From the IMG/VR virus record IMGVR_UViG_3300049137_000091, positions 1-64,000 of that record: 64,000 nucleotides of DNA; one strand, given 5' to 3'. Source of the stretch: a virus. Its lineage: Duplodnaviria > Caudoviricetes. A model generated the notes under the pieces. The model searched no databases, was not told where the DNA came from, and saw only the letters and a program-made list of their open reading frames with translations. Position numbers and translations under genes: made by a program. Each line of letters begins with the position of its first letter. Within the stretch, counting starts at the first letter, position 1. Below, in pieces: positions 418-49,074 of this stretch.

Positions 418-798
418 TCAGCGGTGCACGACCGGCTTGGACAGGTCGCGGTGCACGACGTCGGCCGGGATGAGCCGGTCACGAAGGGCGTCGCGCACCG
501 CCTCGGCGACGGTGGCCGCCCGGTGCCGCCCGCCGGCGCAGCCGATGGCGAGGACGAACGGCTTGTCCCCGGCCGGGCCGTCCGTAAAGGCGGAGACGGC
601 GCGGGCCAGCGAGCGGACCAGGGCGGGAATGCCGGGCGTGCCGAGCACGGCGTCGCGCACGGCCGCGTCCCGGGCGGTCAGGTTCTTCAGCTCGGGGGAG
701 ACGTGCGGGTCCTTGAAGTGGTAGCGCAGGTCGGCGGTCAGGTGCGCCTCGGGCGGGTCGTCGTGCAGGAAGCCGAAGCTGACGATGGTCACGTTCAT
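418..798 (-). CDS. Stand-alone RapZ/YvcJ C-terminal-domain-like protein
   Basis: VSFGF..., D.R...DP and IGCAGGRHR motifs typical of the RapZ C-terminal domain; no P-loop domain. Confidence 0.75.
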   Translation of the reverse strand: MNVTIVSFGFLHDDPPEAHLTADLRYHFKDPHVSPELKNLTARDAAVRDAVLGTPGIPALVRSLARAVSAFTDGPAGDKPFVLAIGCAGGRHRAATVAEAVRDALRDRLIPADVVHRDLSKPVVHR

Positions 799-825
799 AG
801 GTTCCTCGTTCCGTGGTCGAGCACG

Positions 826-843
826 ATGAATTAACTAAACCAT
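826..843 (-). promoter_or_regulatory. 18-bp AT-rich operator/-10 box
   Basis: ATGGTTTAGTTAATTCAT on minus strand, TTGCGC 17 nt upstream, 28 nt before the 798 start. Confidence 0.8.
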
Positions 844-872
844 ACTAGGGATGACAGCGCAACCTCTGGACG

Positions 873-913
873 CGACGAAGCCCCGGCACCCTTCCGGGCC
901 CGGGGCTTCGTCG
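873..913. terminator. GAAGCCCCG-family hairpin
   Basis: CGACGAAGCCCCG...CGGGGCTTCGTCG after the 921 stop. Confidence 0.65.
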
Positions 914-920
914 TTGTCGC

Positions 921-1328
921 TCACCGCTTGCGGCGGTTGACCTTCGCCGCCGCCTTGGCCTTCGCCTCGTCGGCTCGGGCCTGCGCCTCCACCGAGGCCG
1001 TGAACTGCCGGATCACGAACAACGCGACCAGGCCGACCACGACGACCGCCAGCAGCACGGCCGCGACGATCGCTCCGGCGACGGCGAGCACCGCCACGCA
1101 GAGGGTGACGACGATGCAACCGAGCAGCAGGGTGAGCAGCCACGGCACCACCTTCTCCGCGACGGTCTTCTCGGTGGCCGCCGGCGCCGGGGCGGGGGCC
1201 GGCGCCGGGTAGTGGTGATGCACGTGCAGGTGGACCCCGTCCGGTCCGGCGACGGTGCCCGCCGACGGATTGGCCTTCAGGTACTCGACCATCTCGGCCG
1301 GGACCGGGGCGTGACGCCTTTCCAGCAT
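921..1328 (-). CDS. Membrane protein, Spd-like (spread protein candidate)
   Basis: Pro/Ala linker, long hydrophobic stretch, basic Ala/Lys tail; lies in the TraB cluster; start uncertain (1328 or 1352). Confidence 0.6.
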   Translation of the reverse strand: MLERRHAPVPAEMVEYLKANPSAGTVAGPDGVHLHVHHHYPAPAPAPAPAATEKTVAEKVVPWLLTLLLGCIVVTLCVAVLAVAGAIVAAVLLAVVVVGLVALFVIRQFTASVEAQARADEAKAKAAAKVNRRKR

Positions 1329-1433
1329 CCCTTCCATGGTTCCTTCTTCCATCGTCCGGCCCGCAGGCCGTCACCCCGAATATACCTCAATCATCAACGG
1401 TTGAACCGTCGTTGCAGGTCAGACGTTGGAACG

Positions 1434-1476
1434 CGACGAAACCCCGGGCCGTCGTGCGGCGCCGGGGCTTCGGTCG
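1434..1476. terminator. GAAGCCCCG-family hairpin
   Basis: CGACGAAACCCCG...CGGGGCTTCGGTCG after the 1490 stop. Confidence 0.55.
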
Positions 1477-1489
1477 GGACGGTGCGGGG

Positions 1490-1684
1490 TCAGACGCCCT
1501 GCGGGACCAGGCGCACCTGATGCTGGAACGTTCGCAGGGCGTCACCCCGGTTGCGGGTGGGCCCGGTGATGCGCGCACCCTGCCGCACCCGGTACCAGGT
1601 GCCCGGCGTGCCCTGGGTCCCGTGGTCGTCGGAGGCGACGTCCAGGGCAACTCCGGAACGGAGAATTTCCGTGGTCCAGTTCAT
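1490..1684 (-). CDS. Hypothetical protein (64 aa)
   Basis: GGAGGG SD, own AT-box upstream and hairpin downstream. Confidence 0.6.
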   Translation of the reverse strand: MNWTTEILRSGVALDVASDDHGTQGTPGTWYRVRQGARITGPTRNRGDALRTFQHQVRLVPQGV

Positions 1685-1721
1685 CAGGTTCCCTCCAGGG
1701 TTCAGGCGCCGGGTTCCCCGA

Positions 1722-1739
1722 CTGATTTAATTAAATCAT
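1722..1739 (-). promoter_or_regulatory. 18-bp AT-rich operator/-10 box
   Basis: ATGATTTAATTAAATCAG on minus strand, TTGCGC 17 nt upstream. Confidence 0.8.
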
Positions 1740-1768
1740 GTTCGGGTCGCCGGCGCAACTCCGTGGGG

Positions 1769-2158
1769 TCAGTACGTGAACGTGTAGGTCACGCCGTCGG
1801 CCGTCTTCGTCTTGGCCAGCTCGCGGTCGTCCACCCGGGCGTCCAGCCACCGGTAGAGCCACGGCCGGGACCGGCCCGTAGCCGTCATGATCTCCTTGAA
1901 GTCGGACGCGGTGACCTGCTTCACCCCCTTCCGCCGCAGGGCGACCAGGTGCTGGTAGGTCACGTCGTTCGCCTCCTCCGTGCTCATCTTGGACTCGGGG
2001 GCGGGCAGTTCGATCACGGTGGCGCCGCCGCGCACCCCGGCGAAGATGAACCCCAGCGCCTCCTCGGCGACCGCGAGTCCGCACCGCCCGCACAGCGGGA
2101 CGGTCTTCGTGTGGACCGCTGAGGCGCCGCAGCCTGCGCAGTTCATTTCCTTGGTCAT
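1769..2158 (-). CDS. Zn-finger plus winged-helix protein resembling the TraB C-terminal wHTH
   Basis: CAGC..CGRC N-terminus; TGRSRPWLYRWLD aligns with TGRPRGWVYDELE of the adjacent TraB. Confidence 0.7.
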   Translation of the reverse strand: MTKEMNCAGCGASAVHTKTVPLCGRCGLAVAEEALGFIFAGVRGGATVIELPAPESKMSTEEANDVTYQHLVALRRKGVKQVTASDFKEIMTATGRSRPWLYRWLDARVDDRELAKTKTADGVTYTFTY

Positions 2159-2405
2159 CTGTCAGCCTTCCTCGTGTCTGCGTTCACCGTCCGGCCGACC
2201 GGGCCGGGCGGAAGAGAGATCCAAGACCGGAGAGTTCCGGCCCTCGTCAGGGGCCCTGTCCGGGCCTGTAATCGACCGTGCCCCGAGACAGCCAGCGGCT
2301 GTCTGCGGACGCGTCAGAAGCGCCACCAGGCCCCGTCAGATACGCGTCAGGGCGGGCTCCCTGACATGGGATGCCCGCCCTGACCTGGCGCTAACCTCCT
2401 GGGGC

Positions 2406-4391
2406 TCACACGGCCGCAGCCTCCGCGAGGACGCTGCGGGCGATGCCGTACACGGCCGTCTGGTTGGGCGGGCTGAGCCGGTCCAGCACGTCCATTTCCA
2501 CCAGGCGCTCCAGCTCGTCGTACACCCAGCCGCGCGGGCGCCCGGTCAGGTCCGGCAGGTCGGCCACAGCGTCGAAGGTCATCTGCGTCTCGCCGCTGCT
2601 GGCCAGCACGTTGATGCGGTTCAGGATCTCCGCGCGGGCCTGGTCGTCGGTCATCCGGTCGAAGTTGACCGGCTCGCACAGGGTGATCGGCTCGGACACC
2701 CGGGGTGCGGCCAGCGGAGCTGCGGCGTCGAACTCCTCGCCGTCCACGTTCACGACGAACGGGTCCAACGGCTCTTGACCTGCGAAGTCCTGCTCCACCT
2801 CGTCCACCTCCGGGGCGGTCTCCTCGTCCACGACCCCGGCCGCCAGGATGCGGTAGGAGCCCTCGTCCAGCTCGGCCCAGTGCGGCCGGGTCGCCTCGAT
2901 CATCGCCGTCCGGTCGGCGCGCTTCACGCGCGGCGCCCGGCCGTCGATGGGCCACAGTTCCTTCGGCGTGCCGGTCAGCTCGGCGTACAGGCTGCCCGGC
3001 GCGTCGTTGGCCCACTTGGTCGGGTCGGCCCCGGCCTCCAGCGTGGGCGCCTCCAGCGCGTACTTGGCGTCCTGGTACTCCTTCTGCCCGTGGGCGAGGC
3101 TCTGGGCGAACTGACCTCGGGTTTTGCGGGAGATGTTGTCGTGCGGCATGGTCTGCATCGACGCGCAGAAGTGCACGCCGACGCTGCGCAGCTTGCGCAG
3201 CGCCTCGTCGGCCTCCTCGTCCACGTAGGGCAGGACGTCGGCGGCCTCCTCGATGTCCAGGAAGATGGCCGGGATGCCGTGCATGTCGTACAGCTCGGGC
3301 ACCCACTGCTTGTAGCCCTTGCCGCCGTCCGCCCTGGTCAGCTTGCCGAAGAGGCCGGCACGGTACTCCACGAGGGGCACCAGGTTCTTCACCAGGCGCT
3401 CCGTGGTGTCCCGGTCCTTGGCGGCCAGGCCCAGCACCTCCTCGATATCGCCGAAGCTCTGCTGGAACTTCGCCGGATCGCCGACGACGGGGACGACGTC
3501 GCGGCGCTCGCGCATCTGGAGGATCGCCATGCAGATCGTGTCCGTCTTGCCCGCTCCGGACATGCCCGTGCACTTCGTGTGGGCCAGCGGCCTGGGGTTT
3601 TCGTCGTCCTCGGACCCGACGATCCACCACTCCATGGGGCTCCCGTCCACGCGGTTGCCCAGCCAGATCGGGGCGTCCGCGATGGAAGCCCCCAGGTGAC
3701 GCGGACCCGTCCACACGGACGGCTTGACGTCCCCGGCCGGCCGCATGAACTGGACGTCAACCTGGGACTCGTCGCCCGGCACCTTCAGCACCTTGACCTG
3801 CGAGGCGTCCACGCCGGCGACGGCCGCGATCTGCTCCTGCGCCGCCTGCGCCTCCTTCGCCGTGGTCGGGGCGTCCAGGTGGACGCGGGCCGTCAGCGTG
3901 CTGTCCGTCTCCTTCACGGCGCCGACCTTGGCGTCCTTGAACGCCCTGATCTTCTCCATGAAGGAGCCGTCACCCTCCTTGACCTGCGACTTGTCCACGT
4001 CACGCACCCCGGACAGGGCGGCGTGCCGCAGGTTCCAGCCGATGGACAGCGCCATGCCGCCGAGGGCCCACGCCTTGACGACGTCGGCCTGCCACGGCTC
4101 CAGCGACGCGGCGATGATGACCCAGGTCAGCGCGGCCGTGACGAACCCGGTGGCCATGACGCGGGTTTCCTGGCGACGCACCGACCAGGTCTTCCACGTG
4201 ATGTAGCTCAGGTAGGCGGAGGCCGCTCCGAGCATGGCCATCCACAGCCCGTCGTCACCGGCGACGACGTGCACCACCAGGGCCACCGGCCAGGCAGCCA
4301 AGGTGAGCAGCCAGGGGAGAAAGTAGCTGGTCAGACGCTCGGGCATGTTGAAGATGCCGAGGAATCCGACGCGGGTCGTTGCCTTGCTCAT
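2406..4391 (-). CDS. traB: TraB-family FtsK/SpoIIIE-type DNA translocase (Streptomyces conjugation protein)
   Basis: N-terminal TM segments, Walker A GMSGAGKT, Walker B-like IFLDIEEA, MQT motif, C-terminal wHTH (GRPRGWVYDELERL). Confidence 0.8.
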   Translation of the reverse strand: MSKATTRVGFLGIFNMPERLTSYFLPWLLTLAAWPVALVVHVVAGDDGLWMAMLGAASAYLSYITWKTWSVRRQETRVMATGFVTAALTWVIIAASLEPWQADVVKAWALGGMALSIGWNLRHAALSGVRDVDKSQVKEGDGSFMEKIRAFKDAKVGAVKETDSTLTARVHLDAPTTAKEAQAAQEQIAAVAGVDASQVKVLKVPGDESQVDVQFMRPAGDVKPSVWTGPRHLGASIADAPIWLGNRVDGSPMEWWIVGSEDDENPRPLAHTKCTGMSGAGKTDTICMAILQMRERRDVVPVVGDPAKFQQSFGDIEEVLGLAAKDRDTTERLVKNLVPLVEYRAGLFGKLTRADGGKGYKQWVPELYDMHGIPAIFLDIEEAADVLPYVDEEADEALRKLRSVGVHFCASMQTMPHDNISRKTRGQFAQSLAHGQKEYQDAKYALEAPTLEAGADPTKWANDAPGSLYAELTGTPKELWPIDGRAPRVKRADRTAMIEATRPHWAELDEGSYRILAAGVVDEETAPEVDEVEQDFAGQEPLDPFVVNVDGEEFDAAAPLAAPRVSEPITLCEPVNFDRMTDDQARAEILNRINVLASSGETQMTFDAVADLPDLTGRPRGWVYDELERLVEMDVLDRLSPPNQTAVYGIARSVLAEAAAV

Positions 4392-4406
4392 GGCCTGTCA
4401 CCTCCC

Positions 4407-4982
4407 CTAGACGACGGTGAAGCCGCCGCGACGGCCCCCGGGTCGGTTGCTCTTGGTCCCGTCGTTCTCCAGCTCGTCCAGGAAGATCTCGAACCGGCGC
4501 CACGCCTTCACGGACTCGGCGGCGCCGGCGGCGCAGTTGTTGGCCAGCGCCGACAGGTTGCGGCCGATCATCCCGAGCGTGGCGGCCATCTTGGCGGCCT
4601 GCATGGGGTTGAGCCGGCCGGTGCTGGCCTGCCGGGCCTGCGCGCGGGCGGCAGCCTTGAGCTGGCCCTGGGCCATGTGCGCGGACACGGCCAGGTAGTT
4701 GAGCAGGGCGCGGTAGCCCTCGCAGAAGGCGTGCAGGTCGTCCTGGTTGGACAGCTCCATCGAGCCGATGGACTGGACGAGCTGGGAGAGGTTCTGGCCG
4801 CGCGTCCCGCCCGGCCGGTGGACGCGCTGGCTCTGACCTGCGGGCTTGCCGGTCGCGTACTGGTCGGGGTGCCCGTGGGCGTCCAGCCCCCGGCTGCGCA
4901 GCTCTTCCGCGCTGGCCCCCTTGACGCGGCCGGACGCGGTGGCGCTCTCGGGCGGGCCGAAGGGGTTCTTGGTCTCGTTCAT
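4407..4982 (-). CDS. TraA-like plasmid transfer protein
   Basis: Directly upstream of traB; LSNQDDLHAFCE and helical Ala-rich C-terminus resemble the TraA proteins of Streptomyces plasmids. Confidence 0.55.
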   Translation of the reverse strand: MNETKNPFGPPESATASGRVKGASAEELRSRGLDAHGHPDQYATGKPAGQSQRVHRPGGTRGQNLSQLVQSIGSMELSNQDDLHAFCEGYRALLNYLAVSAHMAQGQLKAAARAQARQASTGRLNPMQAAKMAATLGMIGRNLSALANNCAAGAAESVKAWRRFEIFLDELENDGTKSNRPGGRRGGFTVV

Positions 4983-5061
4983 TCCTGATTCCTCGTCTCT
5001 GGTCCGGGGTTCCTTCAGTCAAGCGACGTGGTCCCCGCCGGGATGATGCCCAGCGGGGACC

Positions 5062-5079
5062 ACGGTTTAACTTAATCAT
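5062..5079 (-). promoter_or_regulatory. 18-bp AT-rich operator box upstream of traA-traB
   Basis: ATGATTAAGTTAAACCGT on minus strand. Confidence 0.7.
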
Positions 5080-5094
5080 GTCACACTCAGCGGC

Positions 5095-6009
5095 CTACGA
5101 GAAGGCGCGGTTCACGGTCTTCCGCAGGGTGTCCGTGTTGACAGCCTCGTAGCCCGGCAGGGTCGGGACGATCGCCTTGATCTCGTCCTTGGTGTGCTGC
5201 ATGTCCCGCAGCCACCGGACGACGTCCGGCAGCTTCTTCTCCAGGACGTCCGCCGGGACATCCGGAGTTGTCCCGGCCCCGGAAGCGGAAGGCGCCGGCT
5301 TGGTGGTCTTCTTCAGCGAGACGTTGACCGTGGACCGCTTCGGGACATCTGCCGGGACAACGGCCTTGTCCCGGGCGGGACGCTTCGTCTCGGCGGCCGG
5401 GACAACCGGGGCCGGGACAACCGGCTGCGGGACATCGACGGCCGGGACAACCGGCTGCGGGACATCGACGGCCGGGACAACCAGGGCCGGGACAACCGGG
5501 GCCGGGACAACCGGGGCCGGGACATCGACGGCCGGCCCGTTGTCCCGGGACAGGCCGACGGTCGCCGGGGACATCGCGGCCTGACGCTTACGAACGCTGA
5601 TCAGCACCTGGTGCATGAGGGCGCCGAACGCGATCAGCGCGGCCGACGGCGGTACGGCGGCCACGATGTAGTCCAGGACCGGGGCCTTCTCGCCGACGCC
5701 GGCCACGTTCAGACCGATGGACCCGGCGGAGCCGACGATGGTCAGGCCGATACCCCACTTGTTGGACTGCCCGCGCAGACCTGACACGAACGTCAGCAGC
5801 TCGCCAGCGATGATGAACAGGTCCAACGTCGCAGGCCAGGCCCACGAACGGGCCGGTGACTCCTCCAGACCGTGCTCGCGGGCGACGTCAGCGAGGTGGG
5901 TGTAGGACAGCCAGAAGGCGATGGCGGTCAGGACGATGATGACGAAGCCGGCGGCCACCAGCGCGGTGAACGCCGCGCGCTCGGCCGGGTCGTCGTAGCT
6001 CTTGGACAT
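5095..6009 (-). CDS. DUF2637-like membrane protein with VPA repeat linker and short C-terminal helical domain
   Basis: AFWLSYTHL...AWPATLD and AAVPP motifs, four TM segments; ATG 6009 has SD and ACCAAGGAA. Confidence 0.75.
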   Translation of the reverse strand: MSKSYDDPAERAAFTALVAAGFVIIVLTAIAFWLSYTHLADVAREHGLEESPARSWAWPATLDLFIIAGELLTFVSGLRGQSNKWGIGLTIVGSAGSIGLNVAGVGEKAPVLDYIVAAVPPSAALIAFGALMHQVLISVRKRQAAMSPATVGLSRDNGPAVDVPAPVVPAPVVPALVVPAVDVPQPVVPAVDVPQPVVPAPVVPAAETKRPARDKAVVPADVPKRSTVNVSLKKTTKPAPSASGAGTTPDVPADVLEKKLPDVVRWLRDMQHTKDEIKAIVPTLPGYEAVNTDTLRKTVNRAFS

Positions 6010-6047
6010 GATCGATTCCTCGGTTCCTTGGTCGGTGCTTTCCTCGG

Positions 6048-6065
6048 TCGATTTACTTAAATCAT
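6048..6065 (-). promoter_or_regulatory. 18-bp AT-rich operator box
   Basis: ATGATTTAAGTAAATCGA on minus strand, upstream of the DUF2637 gene and abutting the array. Confidence 0.7.
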
Positions 6066-6320
6066 AGTACCCGGACATGTCCCGGGACAACCCCGCGCCG
6101 GGACACGCGTTGTCCCGGGACATCCGGCTGAGCGGGACAACGCGCCGGCGGGACATGTCCCGGGGCTATCCGCTGCGGGACACGGCTTGTCCCGGGACAA
6201 CAGGGCACCGGGACATCTCGGCAGCGGGACAGCCCGTGTCCCGGGACAACCTTCTGCGGGACACCGGACACGACGAAGCCCCGGGACACGATCTGTCCCG
6301 GGGCTGTTGTCCCGCCGCGC

Positions 6321-6569
6321 TCAGGTGTCCCGTTGTCCCGTTGTCCCGGGGACATCAAGCGGAATTGCCATCTCGCTGTAGTGGAAGCTGACGATCTCGA
6401 TGTCCCCCACCGGGACACCCTCATCCCGGGACAAGTCCCGGACGACGACCGCGCGCAGCCGTTCCTCGCTGCACGGGGCCGGGGACACCGCTGTCCCCTC
6501 CAGTGTCCGGGGCTGTCCCCGCAGGATCACTGACGCGCCATAGACGTATCCGTGCTGTGTCCCGGTCAC
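6321..6569 (-). CDS. Hypothetical protein (82 aa) overlapping the repeat array
   Basis: GTG start overlaps the TGA of the 6566-7009 ORF (GTGA coupling). Confidence 0.45.
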   Translation of the reverse strand: MTGTQHGYVYGASVILRGQPRTLEGTAVSPAPCSEERLRAVVVRDLSRDEGVPVGDIEIVSFHYSEMAIPLDVPGTTGQRDT

Positions 6570-7009
6570 CGCATGAGTCCGGGGTCCCCGGCGAACTGCC
6601 ACGCGGGGCGACCGTCCCGGGACGTCCGGGACAGAGCCCCGACGCTCGCCAGGAAGTTGAGGCGGTCGGACACCCACGACATCGGCAGGCCGATGTCCCG
6701 GGCGATGTCGGCGAAGTCGTCCAGGACGACGACGTCACGCCCGGACCGGGCCAGCGTGGCCAGCCTGCGCTCCATGGACCGGGGCAGGCCGTCGGCCCGG
6801 TGCTCCTGCGCTCGCGCCTCCTCATCCTCGGCACCGGCGTAGATCCCGTCCCAGGCGATCCTGCGCAGCTCGCCGGCGGCGAAGGCGAGCCGCGACTGCT
6901 CGTGCCGGGGCACGGACCGCAGGATCTCCCGGGCCCGTGCCGGGTCGTCGGCGAGCACGGCGCGCAGGGCGTCGGCCGCCGCCTCGGTGGTTGCGTCAGT
7001 GGTTTTCAT
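6566..7009 (-). CDS. Hypothetical protein, possible C-terminal winged helix
   Basis: GAGGAG SD; FADIARDIGLPMSWVSDRLNFL helix-turn-helix-like segment. Confidence 0.6.
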   Translation of the reverse strand: MKTTDATTEAAADALRAVLADDPARAREILRSVPRHEQSRLAFAAGELRRIAWDGIYAGAEDEEARAQEHRADGLPRSMERRLATLARSGRDVVVLDDFADIARDIGLPMSWVSDRLNFLASVGALSRTSRDGRPAWQFAGDPGLMR

Positions 7010-7667: not shown

Positions 7668-7978
7668 GCGGGCGTTTCCTCTCCGTCGGCGGGCGGGGTC
7701 CAGTGCATCGCGTCTCCGGGCCCGAACGGCACGGCGGGAACCAGGTCCGGCGGGGGCAGTCGCGCGGCCGTCTCCCGCAGCGTCCGGCGGGACGCGTCGA
7801 AGGCGAGAGCGAACTGGGCGACGGCTTCGTGCACTTCACGGAACGTGTCGGCTGCCCGCTGGAACATCTCGCCCACGGTGGCGAAGGCATCCCCGGAAAC
7901 CACGGAGCCCGCCTCACCGGGGCTCGGTGACGCGGGCTCGTCGCGTGGGCGGTCGCCGGCCGATGGCGGCCACGGCAT
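7655..7978 (-). CDS. Hypothetical protein
   Basis: ATGA-coupled to the 7978-8241 ORF. Confidence 0.45.
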   Translation of the reverse strand: MPWPPSAGDRPRDEPASPSPGEAGSVVSGDAFATVGEMFQRAADTFREVHEAVAQFALAFDASRRTLRETAARLPPPDLVPAVPFGPGDAMHWTPPADGEETPACPA

Positions 7979-8241
7979 CAGACCGCCCCCTTCACCGCGA
8001 CCCACAGCGTGTCCTTGTCGGCCTGCGAGGTCTCGGGGGAGACCTTGGTGGCCTTGCCGTCACGGCGCAGACGGTCCAGGGCGAGGTAAGCGCGGGACGT
8101 GTTGAGCCCCATCTCCTCGGCGATCTGGTTGCGGGTGAGGCCGTCCGGGTTGTCGCGCAGCATCTCCAGGATGCGGCGGTCCCGTTCGATCGTCTCGGCG
8201 GGGCGGGGGCGGCCCCGCCGTCGCTCGGCGGTCATGGTCAT
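7978..8241 (-). CDS. Small winged-helix DNA-binding protein
   Basis: GLTRNQIAEEMGLNTSRAYLALDRLRRDG. Confidence 0.7.
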   Translation of the reverse strand: MTMTAERRRGRPRPAETIERDRRILEMLRDNPDGLTRNQIAEEMGLNTSRAYLALDRLRRDGKATKVSPETSQADKDTLWVAVKGAV

Positions 8242-14474: not shown

Positions 14475-17123
14475 CTACGCCACGAAACGGTCCAGCTTCC
14501 GTGACGCGGTGACGACCGCGAACAGGTCGGACGCCTCACCCATGCGGATGCCGTCCGGCGTCTGCACGCCTGCGTAGGCGAGCAGCCCGAGCAGCTTCGG
14601 CGTGGCCGGCTTGCGCCTCCAGGCGGCCGTCTTCGTCATGTTCAGCGTGCTGCGGTCCTGCGCTTCCGACTCCGCCCAGGCCATCGCCATGCCCAGGTCC
14701 AGCCCGGTGTGCAGCTTTTCCCAGTTGCCCCGGGGCGGGGCGTGGACCACCGACCACTTCTCCGGCTCCTCGTCCGGCCACAGCGCGATCTCGCCGCTGT
14801 CACCGATCGGGATGAACTGGACGCCGCCTGGGGTGCGCAGCCACGAGTACGCGGCCGACCCGGTGAACAGGTCGATTTCCCGGTGCGTCAGCTCGAACGC
14901 AGGCGAGCCGGCCGGGACCTTGCGGCCCGCCTCCTCCGCCTCGCGCACGACGGCTTCGGCCAGCGTCTCGCCGTCCTTCACCTGCCGCACGGCGGCGCCC
15001 GGGTCCAGGTCGATGAGCGTGCACAGCGACCCGCCGGTGCCGCCCAGGATGAGCACCGAGGCGTCCTTCTTCCCGGTCGCCGGCGACGGCCGCAGCACCC
15101 GGCCCACCATCTGGATGAAGAGGGGCTGCGACTTGGTGGGCCGCGCGATGACCGCGCAGTCGGCGAACGGGAAGTCGGCGCCCTCGGTGAGCACCATGCA
15201 GTTGACCAGCGTGCGCACGGAGCCCTCGCGGAACCTGCGGTAGATGTCCAGCCTCTCCTCGCGGGGCGTCCCGCCATGCACGTAGGCCGCGCTCGGCAGG
15301 GCCGCCGCCGTCTCCCGCGCCACCTCGACGGTCGGCGTGAAGACGATCGGCGACCGCCGGTCGGCCGCGTGTTCCTCCAGCACCTTGGCGATGATCTGCG
15401 GGCCGCCTGACTCCATCAGCGCGCGTCCGAGGTCTTTCGCCTGGTAGTCGCCTGCCGTCCGCTTGACGTCGGCCAGGTTCAGGGTGTCCACGTCGATGAT
15501 CCGGGAGCTGACGTCCACCAGGTAGCCACGGGCCATCGCCCACAGCGGGGACCGGGTGTAAACCGCGTCCTCCCAGACACCGCCGAGACCCTGACCGTCG
15601 CCCCGGGCCAGCGTCGCCGTCACCCCGATCGCGCGGGTGCCCGGCATGCCGGAGAAGCACCCGAGCCCGGCCAGGATGTTGCGGTAGGACACGGCCGCCG
15701 CGTGGTGGCACTCGTCCACGATGACCAAGCCGACCGGCCCGTACTTCTCCTGCGAGTCGGCGAGCTGCTGGAAGCGCTTCTCCCGGGCCAGGGTCTGAAC
15801 GGAGCAGACCATGACGTCGGCGTGCACATCGTTGTCCCCGGCCTTGACCTTGCCTGCCGACAGGGCGGGTTCGGTCTGCCGCAGCTTGGCCAGCGTCTGG
15901 TCGGCGAGTTCGTCACGGTGCACGAGGACGACGACGCGCGTCCCCTCCGTCTCGACGTGCTCCACGGCCATGCGGGAGAAGACGACCGTGTTGTGCGTGA
16001 CGATGTGGTGTCGTGTCACCTGATACAGACTGTCCGGGGCCGCCACGCTGATGCAGCGGATCTCCTGGTCCTCTACGCGCTCCACGCCCACAACCGCGCG
16101 CCGGGGTTCGAGCGTCCGGCGCGGGCCGCCGGGGCGGTTCTTGCGCGGCGTGGAGAACGCGGGGGTGTCCGACGGCATGAGGATGTTGACCACGATGTTC
16201 TGGTACGCCTTGCCGTTGGACGGCTGCACCCGGTCGTAGGCCGACACGCTGGCGGTACCTCCCAGGGAGCACACCAGCTCCCGCACGTCCTCCGCCAGAC
16301 GCAGCGACGTCGTGTGGTAGCAGACCGCCCGGCGTTCGGCCCGGCTGGACCCGTCGTTGTCCATGAGGCCGTGCAGCAGGGCGACACGCTGCCGAGTCCC
16401 CGCCTCCAGGTACCGGCGCGGGATGAACTTGTCCGCGCTGTTGACGCACAGGCCCATCGCACGGACGTGTCGCTGCACGCCACGGACGATGAACCGGGGG
16501 CACCACTTCGTCTCGTCTACGGAGACCCGCGTCACCTCGTGCTCCGCCTGAACGCGTTCGGCCACGTGCTCGTCGGGCGTCGTCAGGACGGGGCTCGTGT
16601 GTGACAGGTAGCCGTTGGCGATCAGGGCGCCCAGAGTGTACGGGCCAACAGGGAGTTCCACGTCGGCGGTGACCGTGCCGGACATCGGGATGGACCACCG
16701 GTTGTTCCGGCCGTGCTTCAGCCCGAGGCCCGCGATGTCCGCCGTGGAGAGCGTCCGGACCTCCCCGGCCGTGCGCCGGTGCGCGTAGTCCCGGGCGGTC
16801 CACAGGTGGTCGGCGTCCGTGACGACGGACGACCCGTCCCCGAACGTGACCCGGTACGCGGGTAGCACGCCCCGGTCGTAGACTCCGGTGATCTCGGTGG
16901 GCCGGCCGTTGCTGCCGAAGACGAGGTCCCCGGCCTGGAGGTCGCCCCACTTGCGCAGGCCCTGCGGGGTGGGGATCTCGGTGTCCAGCGGGTGGCCTTT
17001 GCCCATGCCGGTGGCCAGCACGATGGCCGGCCGCTGCATGCCCTCTTTCCACGCGGTGTGCACGGCGTCGATCGCCTCGCGCTGATAGGGCCGCAGCGTG
17101 ATGTGCTCCTGCGCCGGGCTCAT
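14475..17123 (-). CDS. SF2 DEAD/DEAH-type helicase interrupted by an intein
   Basis: LRPYQ, ATGMGK|T, DECHH, TATLARGD, LTEGAD, QMVGR motifs. Confidence 0.9.
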   Translation of the reverse strand: MSPAQEHITLRPYQREAIDAVHTAWKEGMQRPAIVLATGMGKGHPLDTEIPTPQGLRKWGDLQAGDLVFGSNGRPTEITGVYDRGVLPAYRVTFGDGSSVVTDADHLWTARDYAHRRTAGEVRTLSTADIAGLGLKHGRNNRWSIPMSGTVTADVELPVGPYTLGALIANGYLSHTSPVLTTPDEHVAERVQAEHEVTRVSVDETKWCPRFIVRGVQRHVRAMGLCVNSADKFIPRRYLEAGTRQRVALLHGLMDNDGSSRAERRAVCYHTTSLRLAEDVRELVCSLGGTASVSAYDRVQPSNGKAYQNIVVNILMPSDTPAFSTPRKNRPGGPRRTLEPRRAVVGVERVEDQEIRCISVAAPDSLYQVTRHHIVTHNTVVFSRMAVEHVETEGTRVVVLVHRDELADQTLAKLRQTEPALSAGKVKAGDNDVHADVMVCSVQTLAREKRFQQLADSQEKYGPVGLVIVDECHHAAAVSYRNILAGLGCFSGMPGTRAIGVTATLARGDGQGLGGVWEDAVYTRSPLWAMARGYLVDVSSRIIDVDTLNLADVKRTAGDYQAKDLGRALMESGGPQIIAKVLEEHAADRRSPIVFTPTVEVARETAAALPSAAYVHGGTPREERLDIYRRFREGSVRTLVNCMVLTEGADFPFADCAVIARPTKSQPLFIQMVGRVLRPSPATGKKDASVLILGGTGGSLCTLIDLDPGAAVRQVKDGETLAEAVVREAEEAGRKVPAGSPAFELTHREIDLFTGSAAYSWLRTPGGVQFIPIGDSGEIALWPDEEPEKWSVVHAPPRGNWEKLHTGLDLGMAMAWAESEAQDRSTLNMTKTAAWRRKPATPKLLGLLAYAGVQTPDGIRMGEASDLFAVVTASRKLDRFVA
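15990..16997 (-). mobile_element. Class-3-type intein (336 aa) with LAGLIDADG homing endonuclease
   Basis: Starts with Gly after GMGK, ends THN before Thr; W in block B (DHLW), C in block F (IRCISV), T in block G; LGALIANG and LHGLMDNDG motifs. Confidence 0.85.
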
Positions 17124-26909: not shown

Positions 26910-26973
26910 CCGGAATGATCATGATGCGATCCGGTCTTAACATCGCCGCACCCGAGACATGGAGGGTGCGGCG

Positions 26974-28581
26974 ATGCCCGTTCACGCCGGGACCATGGCG
27001 GTCCCCCTGGAAGACCTCACCCCGTTCCCCGGCAACGCACGCCGGGGCAACGTGGACCTGATCCTCGACTCGCTGCGGACCAACGGGCAGTACAAGCCGC
27101 TGGTGGTGCGGCGCCAGGGCGACACCATGACCGTGCTGACCGGCAACCACACGCTTCTCGCGATGCTGCGGCACGAGGAGAACGACCGGGACGGCTGCCC
27201 CGACTGGGAGCTGGCCAACAACCGCCCGTGCCAGCTCTGCGTGGACGTGGAGGCCGACGACCCGGCCGCCCTGTCCCACGTCATCGAGTGCGACGACGCC
27301 ACCGCCGCCAGGATCAACCTGGTGGACAACCGGGCGGCCGACGTCGGCACCTACGACGAGGAGGCCCTGGCCGCCATCGTCGCCTCCCTGGACGGCGATC
27401 TGGTCGGCACCGGGTTCGGCATCAGCGAGGCCGAGATGTTCGAAGCAGGTCTGCTGGACTCGCCGACGGCGGCGGACGACGTCGCCAGCGAGCAGGGAGC
27501 GGAGTCGGCCGGCGATGAGGTCCCGGAGGCCCGCCCGTCCCTGGCCGACCGGTTTCTGATCCCGCCGTTCGACGTCCTCGACGCTCGCTCCGGCTGGTGG
27601 CGCACCCGCAAGCGACAGTGGCTCTCCCTGGGCTTCCGATCTGAGGTCGGCCGGGACACCGGCCTGACCTACAACACCGAGCGGGCCGACCCGAACTTCT
27701 ACGCGAAGAAGAACAAGGTGGAGGCGGAGCTGGGCCGGACGTTGACGGCGGCCGAGTTCAAGCGGGACTACTACGTGCGGCCGACCGAGGGGCCTGCGAC
27801 CGGGACGTCCATATTCGACCCGGTGCTCTGCGAACTGGCCTACCGGTGGTTTTCCGCTCCCGACGCCACGGTGCTGGACCCGTTCGCCGGCGGGTCGGTG
27901 CGCGGCCTGGTCGCAGGCATTCTGGGGCGCCGCTACCTCGGCAACGACCTGTCGATGGACCAGGTGACTTCCAACCGTGAGCAGGGCGAGGCGTTCGTCA
28001 AGCGCGGACTGCTGACCGACGACGGCCGCCCGGCGCCGGTGTGGTCGGTCGGGGACTCGTCGGCGTGGGTTCAGACGCTGGAGCCGGAGAGCGCGGACCT
28101 GGTCTTTACCTGTCCGCCGTACTACGGCCTGGAGGTCTACTCCGACGATCCGTCGGACTTGTCCACGATGGGTTACGACGCCTTCGACAAGGTCTACGCC
28201 GAGATCATCGCCGGGGCGGCCCGTGCCCTGCGTCCGGACCGGTTCGCCGTGTTCGTCGTCGGTGATGCCCGGGACGGCAAGGGCCGGCTGCACGACCTGC
28301 GTGGGTCCACGATCCGGGCTGCTGAGGAAGCTGGCCTCACCTACGCCTCCGGCGCCGTCCTAATCACGTCTGTCGGGTCGGCCTCGATCTCAGCAGGACG
28401 TGCGTTCACGAGGACTCGGGTCCTGACGGCCGTGCACCAGGACGTCCTGGTCTTCGCCAAGGGCAACCGGTCGAAGGCGGCGCAGGCGTGCGGGGACGTC
28501 GAGGTACACCTGCCGGACGACGTCGCGGCGGTGCTGGACGAGCCGGCCGCCGACGGCTTGCAGCTCTCCGACCGGCCCTGA
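26974..28581 (+). CDS. ParB/Srx-like N-terminal domain fused to amino (N6A/N4C) DNA methyltransferase
   Basis: PFPGNARRG and LTGNH; VLDPFAGG motif I and FTCPPYY motif IV. Confidence 0.85.
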   Translation: MPVHAGTMAVPLEDLTPFPGNARRGNVDLILDSLRTNGQYKPLVVRRQGDTMTVLTGNHTLLAMLRHEENDRDGCPDWELANNRPCQLCVDVEADDPAALSHVIECDDATAARINLVDNRAADVGTYDEEALAAIVASLDGDLVGTGFGISEAEMFEAGLLDSPTAADDVASEQGAESAGDEVPEARPSLADRFLIPPFDVLDARSGWWRTRKRQWLSLGFRSEVGRDTGLTYNTERADPNFYAKKNKVEAELGRTLTAAEFKRDYYVRPTEGPATGTSIFDPVLCELAYRWFSAPDATVLDPFAGGSVRGLVAGILGRRYLGNDLSMDQVTSNREQGEAFVKRGLLTDDGRPAPVWSVGDSSAWVQTLEPESADLVFTCPPYYGLEVYSDDPSDLSTMGYDAFDKVYAEIIAGAARALRPDRFAVFVVGDARDGKGRLHDLRGSTIRAAEEAGLTYASGAVLITSVGSASISAGRAFTRTRVLTAVHQDVLVFAKGNRSKAAQACGDVEVHLPDDVAAVLDEPAADGLQLSDRP

Positions 28582-45140: not shown

Positions 45141-46994
45141 ATGCCGTGGTACGACGCGTTCCGGGGCCGAACGCCCCGGCCGCCCGAGACCGCAACGACC
45201 TTCGGACCTGCGCCGGTGCCCGAGGCGCTGACGGCCGCCGCGTCCGAACCGCGCGGCCCCGAGACCAAGTTCTTGCGCCGCACCGAGTCCTGGCAGGAGG
45301 AGGTGTGGCGGTACCACGAGACGCTGGGCGAGTTCAACTACGGCGTGTGGTGGCTGGCCAACATGCTCTCCCGGGTCCGGCTGCGGGCGGCCCGGCTCAC
45401 CCCCGACTCCGACGAGCCGGAGATCGTGCGCACCGGCACGGCCGCCGAGCTGATGATGCGCCTCGGTGGCGGTGTCGCCGGTCAGGCTCAGCTCATGCGC
45501 CGGCTGACCGTGCAGCTCTCCCTGCCCGGCGAGGGCTACCTGGTGGGGGAGACGGAGGGGAAGACCGAGCGCTGGCAGGTGCGGTCGGTGGACGAGATCC
45601 GCGTCCAGTCGAACCGCTACGAGGTGATGGACGAAGAGAGCGTCACCACCGGGCAGGAATGGCGCCCCCTTGCCGCCGACCACCTTGTGGTCCGCGTCTG
45701 GCGCCCGCACGATCGCTTCTACCACCTGGCCGACTCGCCGGCCCGGTCCGCCCGCGAGGTGATGCGCGAGCTGGAGTTGGTCAACCGGAAGATCACGTCC
45801 GAGTATCTGTCGCGTCTGGCCAGTGCGGGCATGGTCGCAATCCCGGACGAGATCAGCTTCCCGGTGCGCGAGGAGTTTGCCGACGAGCCCAACCCGTTCA
45901 TGGCCGAGTGGATCGAGATTGCCGCGACGGCGATCCAGAACCCGGGCACCGCGTCGGCCGTCGTGCCGATCCCGCTGGTGGGCCCGGCCGAGGCCATCGA
46001 TAAGATCCGCATGATCGACTTCACGCTGAAGACGGATGAGAAGACGATCGAGAAGCGGGACAGCGCAATCAAGCGCCTGGCCACCAAGCTCGACATGCCC
46101 GCCGAGGTGCTGCTGGGCATGGGTGACGTCAACCACTGGGGGCAGTGGCAGCTCGAAGAGTCCGGGCTGAAAACGCACATCGCGCCGGTGGCCGAGCTGA
46201 TCTGCGACGCCCTGACGCGCGGCTACCTCCAGCCCCGGCTGGAAGCCTCCGGCGAGGACCCGGACGCGTGGGTCGTCTGGTACGACATGTCCGAGCTGGC
46301 GCTGCGCCCGGACCGTTCCGGCAACGCCGTCCTGGCCTACGACCGCATGGAGTTGAGCAGCGAGTCCTTCCGCCGGGAGATGGGCTTCAACGAGTCCGAC
46401 GCACCCACCGACGACGAGCTGCGCAACCTCGCGCTGAAGACCATCATCCGCACGCTGCCGTCCGGCGCCGCGTCCGCGCTGTCCCAGCTCATCGGGGAGG
46501 ACGTCCCGCAGATCGTGCCGGTGTCCCCGCAGGACCCGGGCACCGCCGAGGCCGTGCAGCAGGGCGACACCCCGCCGCCGGCCGGGCAGACGCCGGAAGG
46601 CGACGCCCCGGCCGGGCCGTCCCCGGCGCCGGACAGCGGGGCACGGCCCACCTCGCAGGAGTCCGGGCCGCCCGGCGAGGCGGCGGCCGACCGGGCCCGC
46701 CGCGTCGTCGCGCAGGCCCGCACACAGCACATGATCCGGTTCTCGGCTGCTGGCAGGTGGGAGCTGCTGCACCCCGGCGTCTGCGAGGAGCACGAGTACT
46801 CCTGCCCGTACACGCATGCCGTCGCCACGGCGGCGCCGTCGGTCCGGCCGGGCACATCCGGAACGTACCTGTGCCACCTGGACCCGTACGGCCGTCTGAT
46901 GCTGGACGGCCGCAGCCCCTACGCCGACACGTCCACGATGATCACCACGTCTCTGCTGCCGGGGGTGAGCGGCCGTGGCACCGACACCGTCTGA
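45141..46994 (+). CDS. Portal protein with C-terminal Pro-rich and Cys/His extension
   Basis: GGAGG SD; QLSLPGEGYL, VRVWRPH, LDMPAEVLLG, NHW.QW; first gene of the head module. Confidence 0.8.
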   Translation: MPWYDAFRGRTPRPPETATTFGPAPVPEALTAAASEPRGPETKFLRRTESWQEEVWRYHETLGEFNYGVWWLANMLSRVRLRAARLTPDSDEPEIVRTGTAAELMMRLGGGVAGQAQLMRRLTVQLSLPGEGYLVGETEGKTERWQVRSVDEIRVQSNRYEVMDEESVTTGQEWRPLAADHLVVRVWRPHDRFYHLADSPARSAREVMRELELVNRKITSEYLSRLASAGMVAIPDEISFPVREEFADEPNPFMAEWIEIAATAIQNPGTASAVVPIPLVGPAEAIDKIRMIDFTLKTDEKTIEKRDSAIKRLATKLDMPAEVLLGMGDVNHWGQWQLEESGLKTHIAPVAELICDALTRGYLQPRLEASGEDPDAWVVWYDMSELALRPDRSGNAVLAYDRMELSSESFRREMGFNESDAPTDDELRNLALKTIIRTLPSGAASALSQLIGEDVPQIVPVSPQDPGTAEAVQQGDTPPPAGQTPEGDAPAGPSPAPDSGARPTSQESGPPGEAAADRARRVVAQARTQHMIRFSAAGRWELLHPGVCEEHEYSCPYTHAVATAAPSVRPGTSGTYLCHLDPYGRLMLDGRSPYADTSTMITTSLLPGVSGRGTDTV

Positions 46995-49074
46995 GGTCCC
47001 GGTCAACGAGGGCGGGGACCTGCTGCGCCGCACGCTGCCTGACGGCGTCCGGCCAGTCGTCCACCGCTGCGGCCGGGCCGCGCTGACCGCCGACGCCGAC
47101 GGCTCGCACACGCAGGGCGGCATGATCGCGCTGATGCCGACGCCCGAAGACGCCGAGCGCCTGGCCATCCCCGGCGGCGAGCCCGCGTCTGAGCTGCACC
47201 TGACGCTCGCCTACCTCGGTAGCGACATGTCGATTTTCAGCGAGGAAGACCGGGCCGCTCTGGTGGAAGGGGTCCGCAGGGAGACCCGTTACCTGTCGTC
47301 CATCACTGCGAAGGTCTTCGGCGCCGCGCTGTGGAACGGCGACGGCGACGAGCCCGCGTGGGTGTGGTCGGTCGGAGACCTTCCCGACGGAGGCTCGCTG
47401 GAGGCCGCGCATGAGGCCGCCGAGGAAGCGGTCTGGGTAGCCGAGATTCCCGCTCCGCCGCAGCACACCCCGTGGGCCGCTCACGTCTGTGCGGCGTACA
47501 GCGACGACCCGGCGCTGCTGGGTGAGCTGAACGCACGACTGGGCGAGGTCACCTTCGACCGGGTGCGCGTCTCCTTCGGCGACGACGACACCGACATTCC
47601 GCTGACCGGCGAGGCGGTGACGGCCGCCGGGCCGCTACGGCGCGAGCCGACCACCCTGGAGGCGGCCAGCCGGTGCGACTTCACGACCGTGCACCGGGAG
47701 TGGGAGGACGCGACCGCGCGGGCGACCGGCGCACTGCGCACCATCACCGCCGGCTGGCGCCTGGCCCTGCGCGGGCAGATCGTGCGCAGTCTCACCGACG
47801 ACGACCCGACCGACGTCCCCGACTTGTCCGTGGACACCCTGGAGGCGGCCACGACGCTGCTGTCCTTCATGGAGGAGTACGCCGTCGCGGCCGGACGGAC
47901 GATGGAAGAAGAGGCCCGGCGCCAGGGTGTCAGCGTGCCGCCGTGGACCGTCCCGGACGGCGATGATGACGCGCTGACGGCCGCGCTGACGGGCCGCCGG
48001 CTGCTGGAGTCGGTGTCGCGCATCGTCTCCGACCTGGCCGCGTCCACGCTGGTGCAGGCCGCCAAGCGCGCGCTGGTCCGGCGCCTGCGCACCGATGCAG
48101 CCCCGGCCACCGTAGCCACGGAGGTGGACCGTGAGCTGGACCGCATGGACGACACCGCCGTACAGGCGGCGGTCGGCCAGGCGATGACCGCCGCGCAGAA
48201 CGCTGGGCGCCTGGCCGTGATGGAGGCCGCCGAGCCGGCCCGGTCGTACGTGGCCAGCGAGATCCTGGACGGCCGCACCTGCGAACCGTGCAAGGCCATC
48301 GACGGACGCACCTTCACCACCCTGGCGAACGCGGTCGCCGAGTACCCGGTGATGGGTTTCAAGGACTGCACCGGCGCCCGGTACGGCAACGCGTGCCGGG
48401 GCTTCATCGTCGCCGTGTGGCAGGAGGTCCGCGAGGACGCGGCCACCACGGCGAGCGCGCACCGCCACTACCTGCACGGCACACCGGGCCGCCCCTCGTA
48501 CCGCAAGTACCACCCCAAGAGCGGCGCGGCACAGGCAGGGCGGAAGACCCAGCACAGGAACGGCGGATGGCTTGGCAGTAACCGGTTCACCGAGCGGGAG
48601 CACGACATGGCGCTGGGGAGCTACACGAGCCGTGGCTACAAGACCATCAACGAGTGCCTGCGCACGGACTGCCAGGGGTCCGAGGACGAAGTCGCGCAGA
48701 CCCGCGAACGCATCAGCACACTCTCGGACCTGGTCAACATCCAGGACCCGACCACCGAGGAGATGCGCACGTACAGGGGGGTGAGGGGCATCCGTCTTGA
48801 TCTTGCCGAGGGTGACGAGTTCCATGACCGGGGCTTCGTCTCCACCACCCGCGACGAGAACTTCGCGAAAGGCTGGATATCCGGCTGGGGGACCATTGTC
48901 CGCATCAAGGTCCCCAAGGGCTCGCAAGTCCTGGACGTCACGGCGCTGGGCGGCCCGGGTTCCGAGAGGGAGGTCATCCTTCCGCCGGGCAGCAAGTTCC
49001 GCGTGACCCGCGCCCAAGTGCCGGACAGCCCGATGGAAGCCGTCGTTCTGGACGTGGAGTTGATCAATGGCTAA
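46975..49074 (+). CDS. 2H-phosphoesterase / MuF-like minor head / ADP-ribosyltransferase fusion
   Basis: HLTLAYLG and HVC; SEILDGRTCEPC...CRG; YKTINECLR, TYRG, FVSTT, EREVIL. Confidence 0.75.
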   Translation: MAPTPSEVPVNEGGDLLRRTLPDGVRPVVHRCGRAALTADADGSHTQGGMIALMPTPEDAERLAIPGGEPASELHLTLAYLGSDMSIFSEEDRAALVEGVRRETRYLSSITAKVFGAALWNGDGDEPAWVWSVGDLPDGGSLEAAHEAAEEAVWVAEIPAPPQHTPWAAHVCAAYSDDPALLGELNARLGEVTFDRVRVSFGDDDTDIPLTGEAVTAAGPLRREPTTLEAASRCDFTTVHREWEDATARATGALRTITAGWRLALRGQIVRSLTDDDPTDVPDLSVDTLEAATTLLSFMEEYAVAAGRTMEEEARRQGVSVPPWTVPDGDDDALTAALTGRRLLESVSRIVSDLAASTLVQAAKRALVRRLRTDAAPATVATEVDRELDRMDDTAVQAAVGQAMTAAQNAGRLAVMEAAEPARSYVASEILDGRTCEPCKAIDGRTFTTLANAVAEYPVMGFKDCTGARYGNACRGFIVAVWQEVREDAATTASAHRHYLHGTPGRPSYRKYHPKSGAAQAGRKTQHRNGGWLGSNRFTEREHDMALGSYTSRGYKTINECLRTDCQGSEDEVAQTRERISTLSDLVNIQDPTTEEMRTYRGVRGIRLDLAEGDEFHDRGFVSTTRDENFAKGWISGWGTIVRIKVPKGSQVLDVTALGGPGSEREVILPPGSKFRVTRAQVPDSPMEAVVLDVELING

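Follow-up and report, generated by a model that had tools for sequence, protein, structure and literature searches.

A putative zinc-ribbon protein with a predicted free-standing copy of the TraB DNA-recognition domain adjoins traB in a complete phage genome

TraB-type conjugation is known as a one-protein system, in which a motor acts together with the clt locus and is held by a GntR repressor. The locus described here raises the question of how such a system is arranged and controlled in a phage: a complete tailed-phage genome carries a TraB motor and lacks a GntR repressor, but it encodes two free copies of the TraB recognition domain (the head) beside two repeat arrays. One of these copies is the C-terminal part of a small protein whose gene lies directly after traB. 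What is this protein, and what could a free head do beside the motor from whose family it comes?

The source, a virus record in IMG/VR, is 89,468 bp long and complete by CheckV, with a GC content of about 70%. The window, by which we mean the whole stretch of DNA analyzed, comprises positions 1 to 64,000 of that record. The element has a tailed-phage gene set (terminase, portal, major head protein, tape measure and primase-helicase-polymerase) and, on the minus strand at 418-7009, a Streptomyces-type transfer module with a DUF2637/SpdB2-like gene, a traA-like gene and traB (Table 1). Pfam found no GntR domain (PF00392) in the 89-kb genome or in the 129-aa small protein, and Rfam gave no match within the window. 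Related contigs are 90-100 kb long, and the only relative among public plasmids is pS1D4-14.2, a 98.8-kb linear plasmid from a soil Streptomyces.

Table 1. Features of the transfer region, in window coordinates
Feature	Position	Strand	Basis
Small gene P0001, putative zinc ribbon plus TraB-type winged helix, 129 aa	1769..2158	-	ORF and translation
N-terminal module of the small protein, residues 1-45: CxxC...CxxC putative zinc ribbon, then helix 24-43	2024..2158	-	Invariant Cys, AF2
C-terminal winged helix of the small protein, residues 58-129: H60-76, H84-94, H98-110, beta hairpin 114-127	1772..1987	-	AF2, VIA-align, NCBIfam, hhalign
Predicted recognition helix, residues 98-110	1829..1867	-	Conserved signature
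Conserved spacer with array B: clt-like candidate and putative small-gene promoter region	2159..2405		Repeat enrichment, conservation
Strong stem-loop just past the traB stop, 11-bp arms	2347..2383	-	RNA fold -53.3 kcal/mol, z -5.2; conserved in relatives
traB (P0002), pSN22-type FtsK-like conjugative DNA translocase, 661 aa	2406..4391	-	NCBIfam plasmid_TraB
TraB C-terminal domain, about residues 578-650, predicted paralogue of the small-protein head	2442..2660	-	hhalign columns 575-648, HMM cross-detection, joint alignment
traA-like gene, 191 aa, directly upstream of traB	4407..4982	-	NCBIfam plasmid_TraA E 0.0014 (weak) and gene order
DUF2637 (SpdB2-like) membrane protein gene	5095..6009	-	Pfam DUF2637 2.7e-13
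Array A, 41 CGGGACA copies in both orientations	5202..6433		41 of the window's 63 copies
Third free TraB-head paralogue (P0091), 147 aa, adjoining array A	6566..7009	-	NF041214 positions 571-631, E 2.2e-7

Several other features of the window were recorded alongside the transfer module. A stand-alone RapZ C-terminal domain protein (418-798, minus strand; Pfam PapZ_C 3e-25) lies in the early/transfer region and is conserved in locus L002. The 882-aa ResIII/DEAD helicase at 14475-17123 (minus strand) has a LAGLIDADG_3 match at residues 246-298, N-terminal to the helicase motifs, which may be an intein or an inserted homing endonuclease. A DNA methyltransferase at 26959-28581 (plus strand) is fused to a ParB-like N-terminal domain (PHROG 5e-37 and 1e-81), and a 699-aa head-region protein at 46975-49074 (plus strand) combines RNA-ligase-like and head-maturation-protease matches with a C-terminal ADP-ribosyltransferase-like match (phrog_3895, 6.6e-8). 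A conserved AT-rich box of about ATGATTTAATTAAATC on the minus strand recurs at 46-65, 824-843, 1720-1739, 5060-5079 and 6046-6065. In this 70% GC genome these boxes stand upstream of successive minus-strand genes and are probably the -10/start regions of the element's early promoters; one of them yields the only sigma-70-like match, TTGTCC-18-TATGAT.

The open reading frame at 1769-2158 is a real gene. Its GC content by codon position (0.61/0.51/0.95) is that of real genes of this element, and about 40 homologues of 59-69% identity, all of roughly 130 aa, were found. Its dN/dS of 0.47 stands against 0.43 for traB. The earlier note had placed the gene right after traB, and a spacer of 247 bp does separate it from the traB stop. 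The note had also read a Zn finger from the sequence. The N-terminal part carries a Cys4 pattern of the zinc-ribbon kind: C7, C10, C23 and C26 are invariant among 25 homologues, and in some sub-clades a C-x3-5-C...C-x2-H (CCCH) pattern takes the place of Cys4. Because the Pfam zinc-ribbon match reaches only E 0.11 (DZR_2), below threshold, we treat the metal site as a predicted one. Comparison of the module with the ESM Atlas returned sub-threshold generic small zinc ribbons only.

Structure prediction, one of the checks that the earlier note had proposed, gave a confident winged helix. The AF2 model of the small protein has a mean pLDDT of 85, which rises to 90-96 across the winged helix (residues 60-129). 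The N-terminal module, with short strands around two CxxC knuckles and a helix after them, is at 75-85, and a low-confidence linker joins the two parts. VIA-align matched residues 58-129 to many winged-helix domains with Z-scores of 7-8.8. The turn and the recognition helix bear the signature G-R-S-R-P-W-V/L-Y-x-W-L, in which R96, R98, W100, Y102, W104 and L105 are invariant in the 25 sequences of the small-protein family. The 129-aa protein contains no ATPase or membrane segment and is not a whole TraB translocase; as modeled, it is a soluble protein of two modules, a Cys4 zinc ribbon with its helix and a winged helix, with a flexible linker between them.

The claim that the C-terminus is a free-standing copy of the TraB winged helix was upheld by profile methods. 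BLASTP of the small protein against TraB is weak (26% over 73 aa, E 6e-4, for this single pair). The hhalign comparison of the small-protein and TraB families gave a probability of 96% and an E-value of 3.7e-9 over 74 columns, and positions 557-627 of the 639 in NF041214 (plasmid_TraB) match small-protein residues 51-120 with E 6.2e-8, the sole NCBIfam family for this protein at E ≤ 1. Both peptides that the note had compared were found; they span residues 82-114 in the small protein and 604-636 in TraB and are identical at 10 of 33 positions. Domain HMMs were constructed from TraB C-termini and from small proteins and run over all loci; every TraB C-terminus and every small protein was cross-detected, and the window's other wHTH gene (7978-8241) was not picked up. 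The counterpart signature of the TraB families is G-R-P/S-R-G-W-V-Y-D-E-L, and a G-R-S-R-P-W-V-Y identical to that of the small protein occurs in some TraBs (P0090, L028).

Structural searches were less specific. In the ESM Atlas the closest structures fall into two clusters (TM 0.60 and 0.54), both bearing the name plasmid transfer protein TraB. Foldseek found no match to the small protein in the PDB at E ≤ 0.001, a wide VIA-align search of the PDB returned many equally scoring winged helices and neither an FtsK gamma nor a TraB-specific signal, and BFVD yielded generic phage HTH proteins only. Since the searches of solved structures return only generic winged helices, the assignment to TraB rests on sequence profiles and not on the fold. 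AF2 modeling of full-length TraB with 21 close homologues reached a pLDDT of 42, too poor for superposing the two heads. In the domain tree the head copies group by type and not by element. The duplication is therefore old, no trace of gene conversion is seen, and this clustering, which has good support, rules out a recent duplication or conversion between traB and the small gene. By profile and phylogeny, the winged helix of the small protein arose long ago as a paralogue of the DNA-recognition domain at the TraB C-terminus and has been maintained separately.

The 661-aa neighbor is itself a true yet divergent TraB homologue by sequence comparison. Its residues 18-652 align with positions 4-634 of the 639 in NF041214 with E 1.6e-89. 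The score of 301 bits lies under the 800-bit equivalog cut-off of that model, so we class the protein as a divergent homologue and not as an equivalog. It is about 24% identical, over about 95% of its length, to the annotated traB products of pSN22, pJV1 and pWTY27, and its Walker A (G-x-x-G-x-G-K-T) and D-x-E-E motifs are invariant. TraB has been described as resembling FtsK/SpoIIIE (PMC4447253); the Pfam FtsK_SpoIIIE model has no match in the 661-aa protein, and in a comparison of its sequence with solved structures FtsK surfaces only at E ~0.15. The traA-traB order is the same in pSN22 and in the NBC_01005 plasmid. For the DUF2637 gene, the first in-frame ATG is at 6156; a ribosome-binding site and the upstream AT-rich box point to 6009, which is most likely the start.

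The earlier note had proposed a survey of co-occurrence with traB in phage-plasmids and plain plasmids. The small gene follows traB in all close phage-plasmid relatives examined and is absent from the classical plasmids tested. It lies 240-270 bp after traB in 10 of 10 IMG/VR loci whose TraB is at least 59% identical. It also follows traB in L001, L002, L004, L005 and L007-L010, and is present in L004 and L005 although the TraB proteins there are only 42-50% identical; on the contig of P0074 one extra gene stands between the two. This clade consists of Streptomyces phage-plasmids of about 90-100 kb. Seven other phage traB loci (TraB 38-51% identical) do not have the gene, and neither pSN22 nor another classical plasmid has a free head copy. 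In four host genomes, free matches to the C-terminal domain alone were restricted to phage-plasmid contigs, and no free head was found beside three classical TraBs. Of 72,556 plasmids, pS1D4-14.2 is the one that has the small gene, and in the GenBank phage collection no DNA or protein match turned up for the region, for TraB or for the small protein. A literature search found no paper describing free TraB heads. The TraB domain and its conjugation system are already known; none of the papers found describes a complete phage genome in which a fixed free copy of the head, with a putative zinc ribbon, is accompanied by additional free heads and by two arrays.

One syntenic relative bears on where the small protein might come from. 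The gene after traB in L005 (4122-4877, P0080) shares the locus position, the zinc ribbon and the head family, and encodes a T5orf172/MUG113 domain between ribbon and head (Pfam 1.2e-5); in P0086 a partial domain of this type is joined to a head. The small protein could thus have no role in transfer and instead be what is left of, or be related to, a mobile homing-nuclease cassette of the T5orf172 (GIY-YIG-like) type that took up a TraB head for targeting. We regard this origin as very unlikely. Unlike P0080, the window protein has no T5orf172/MUG113 domain by Pfam, and a nuclease domain is likewise absent from about 40 close homologues. The gene is fixed, keeps its position throughout the clade instead of occurring patchily, and is under constraint like that on traB.

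The spacer between traB and the small gene is itself a conserved element, with a mean column identity of 83% across five elements. It holds what we call array B, seven copies of CTGAC/GTCAG that start at 2161, 2246, 2313, 2335, 2346, 2361 and 2380, against 0.60 expected (P 3.5e-6); nowhere else in the 64-kb window are these copies packed as densely. Enrichment of this motif after traB was found in 13 of 15 loci, and in loci that lack the small gene 6-11 TGTCA-type repeats, mostly TGTCAG, lie in the approximately 150 bp past the traB stop. The exceptions are L002 and L018, which have CACGGAC-type repeats in its place. In these two loci the reading parts of both proteins are also lineage-specific, namely Q-R-S-R-G-W-V-Y-K-Q-L in TraB and G-K-S-R-G/S-W-V-Y-A-W-L in the small protein, with changes in the turn or reading helix. 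Array B lies where the clt of pWTY27 was mapped, abutting the 3' end of the tra gene (PMC3583192). TraB is reported to recognize 8-bp repeats by way of helix alpha-3 in its wHTH (PMC3583192; PMC4447253).

The stem-loop just past the traB stop, likely the traB terminator, contains the repeat motif in each arm as well as in its loop. As the small gene stands alone between this hairpin and the AT-rich box at 1720-1739, its promoter most likely lies within the array-B spacer, a placement that draws on conservation. The small gene would then be a fixed, independently transcribed unit, flanked by a putative terminator and by the AT-rich promoter box that follows. In most lineages examined, a conserved GGCCTWRG box, -10-like (TAGGTT or TAAGAC), occurs 11-20 nt past the last TGTCAG-type repeat; where it was seen (window 2159-2405 and L025-L029), the next gene is either the small wHTH gene or one for a membrane protein of 65-75 aa. 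The palindrome CTGACGCGTCAG, taken from the spacers of relatives, is not enriched in the window and was rejected as an operator candidate.

The second repeat field, array A, lies upstream of traB. CGGGACA occurs 63 times in the whole window against 21 expected, and the 41 copies in the array include five palindromes TGTCCCGGGACA found nowhere else in the window. It lies partly inside the DUF2637 gene, whose 3' half has GGGACA repeats at 15-bp spacing. The P-V-V-P-A peptide repeats of the DUF2637 protein are encoded by these repeats, so that protein repeat and DNA repeat are the same sequence. The two-cluster layout of array A is kept in relatives, and about 50 GGGACA copies lie upstream of traB in 11 of them. 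Next to array A stands the third free head, which a whole-genome search recovered again. Its family forms a separate clade (support 100/98) of proteins of about 95-190 aa, and relatives have one or two such upstream copies.

The earlier note had proposed that the small protein could mask a repeat array taken as clt and block TraB export, for example during packaging, which would give a switch between transfer and the lytic cycle. Applied to array A, the array meant there, this reading gains from the size and conservation of the array, from a -35-like hexamer of a promoter-like site upstream of the DUF2637 gene that overlaps the first repeats, and from accounts of TraB-type heads that read short repeats (PMC4447253; PMC3583192). 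The swapped arrays of two relatives argue against it. L017 (pS1D4-14.2; 3200-4400) and L020 (3340-4340) carry 18-25 CGARAGC repeats and almost no GGGACA, a complete exchange of the motif between elements that are alike in other respects, yet the reading helices of their TraB and small proteins show no consistent change. The helix that does change in step belongs to the upstream paralogue, where two exposed positions are altered (G-R-P-L-x-W-x-G against R-P-[DGA]-x-W-x-[EATV]). Moreover, fifty copies in 1.2 kb are unlike known clt loci, which have a few repeats in 50-200 bp (PMC3583192), and no link to packaging was seen. Masking of array A by the small protein is in our judgment improbable. 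The motif of array A appears to change with the third paralogue and not with TraB or the small protein, which is suggestive only, as it concerns two lineages and linked DNA.

These observations point to array B as the more likely site of action. The small protein probably recognizes short repeats that adjoin its gene and modulates conjugative transfer. In the specific form that we favor, tentatively and at a little less than an even chance, the free head would bind array B, repress its own promoter and limit the access of TraB to the clt-like site. The small protein would then be a sequence-specific DNA binder on short repeats of the tra region, and its most likely target would be the CTGAC/GTCAG (TGTCAG-type) cluster in its own upstream spacer. 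Once bound, it could silence its promoter and also limit or time the loading of TraB, and so act as a Kor-like brake on conjugative export or as its antagonist. Self-association, on which stable binding by a lone winged helix depends, might come from the zinc ribbon and its helix; in TraB the hexameric motor would provide it. Competition with TraB is plausible, and promoter control is at least as likely as masking.

Support for this reading comes from several sides. The small gene is a fixed partner of traB and is constrained like it. In most Streptomyces plasmids TraR and traB form a kil-kor pair, and traB is tolerated only with the GntR repressor TraR (PMC4447253); the 89-kb genome has no GntR-type TraR. 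Array B is strongly enriched, is alike in most loci and holds a clt-like position; L017 and L020 keep it, together with both heads, although array A is swapped; and in L002 and L018 the turn or reading helices of TraB and of the small protein are changed along with the array. Set against this, the covariation comes from one or two lineages and from linked DNA. Moreover, the GTCA core is retained across TraBs whose reading helices are highly diverse, and the motif is thus not predicted by the helix sequence.

The C-terminal domain of TraB is also a protein-interaction surface (PMC4447253), so a free copy could act without DNA. The small protein might cap or poison TraB hexamers, or bind the SpdB2/Spd partners of the TraB C-terminal domain. 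Contacts of the pSVH1 TraB recognition domain (aa 717-772) with Spd198 and with the C-terminal domain of SpdB2 are described, as well as an interaction between the N- and C-terminal parts of TraB (PMC4447253), and a DUF2637/SpdB2-like gene belongs to the module studied here. However, every member of the small-protein family keeps Arg-x-Arg, Trp and Tyr in its turn and recognition helix, as expected of a retained DNA-contact surface; TraBs have the same pattern with some substitutions. The small gene also adjoins a repeat cluster in every lineage. A modulator acting at the protein level is, on balance, unlikely.

A free head could also help transfer instead of restraining it. As an accessory factor like those of relaxosomes, the small protein would mark or bend the clt-like array and recruit TraB, and efficient transfer would need it. 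Its gene stands immediately next to both traB and the array, and according to PMC3583192, transfer in theta-type plasmids, SCP2 and pZL12 among them, depends on a major tra gene plus two genes next to it. Classical TraB plasmids, however, require only TraB and clt (PMC3583192), and the seven more distant phage traB loci keep an array without the small gene. That gene is dispensable for clt function as such, a point that weighs on the favored array-B reading as well. We assign the accessory role a low probability.

Several known systems invite comparison with the small protein. With the winged helix of Streptomyces TraB (pSN22/pJV1/pSVH1; NF041214) its head shares homology, the helix-helix-turn-helix-wing order, the G-R-x-R-x-W-V-Y motif and adjoining short-repeat DNA. 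Unlike TraB, it is free-standing, has a Cys4 zinc ribbon instead of a membrane anchor and FtsK-like ATPase, and forms its own clade. Like the GntR-type repressors TraR and KorA, it is by sequence a small protein of the DNA-binding type encoded beside traB, in an element that has to restrain TraB; unlike them, it has no GntR/UTRA domain, belongs to an unrelated fold family and would be a repressor by conjecture, and its gene is downstream of traB and not divergent from it. To FtsK gamma, the KOPS reader and C-terminal winged helix of an FtsK-type pump for 8-bp motifs, its resemblance goes no further than the common fold. FtsK gamma had no Pfam match at E ≤ 1 and was absent among the matches listed by Foldseek and VIA-align, where many winged helices scored equally.

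At the level of the whole element, the closest parallels are the plasmid-phage pZL12 and its relative pSLE1. A title cited in PMC4487206 describes pZL12 as a plasmid with conjugal transfer and a lytic phage cycle. The element of the window is likewise a complete tailed-phage genome with a tra module, and its 89 kb is similar to the 86 kb of pSLE1 (PMC4487206). Its small gene is unmatched in the phage collection and occurs in one plasmid record, that of pS1D4-14.2.

A broader scheme, unlikely in our estimate, is a small address system in which the TraB head and two or three free heads are each paired with an array of their own. One head would be matched to array B behind traB and another to array A, which adjoins the upstream paralogue. 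The zinc-ribbon head would be a dedicated antagonist that competes with the TraB hexamer at clt and so acts as a DNA-level switch between conjugation and the phage cycle, built from the reading domain of the motor itself and deciding whether a genome copy is pumped into the neighboring hypha or kept for replication and packaging.

If the favored reading is true, and the free head competes or controls at array B, it would provide a testable handle on how a phage-plasmid chooses between conjugative export and virion production. It would also mean that the DNA-recognition modules of translocases can be duplicated and then re-used as regulators, and co-varying pairs of heads and arrays could help to decode how TraB heads read 8-bp signals.
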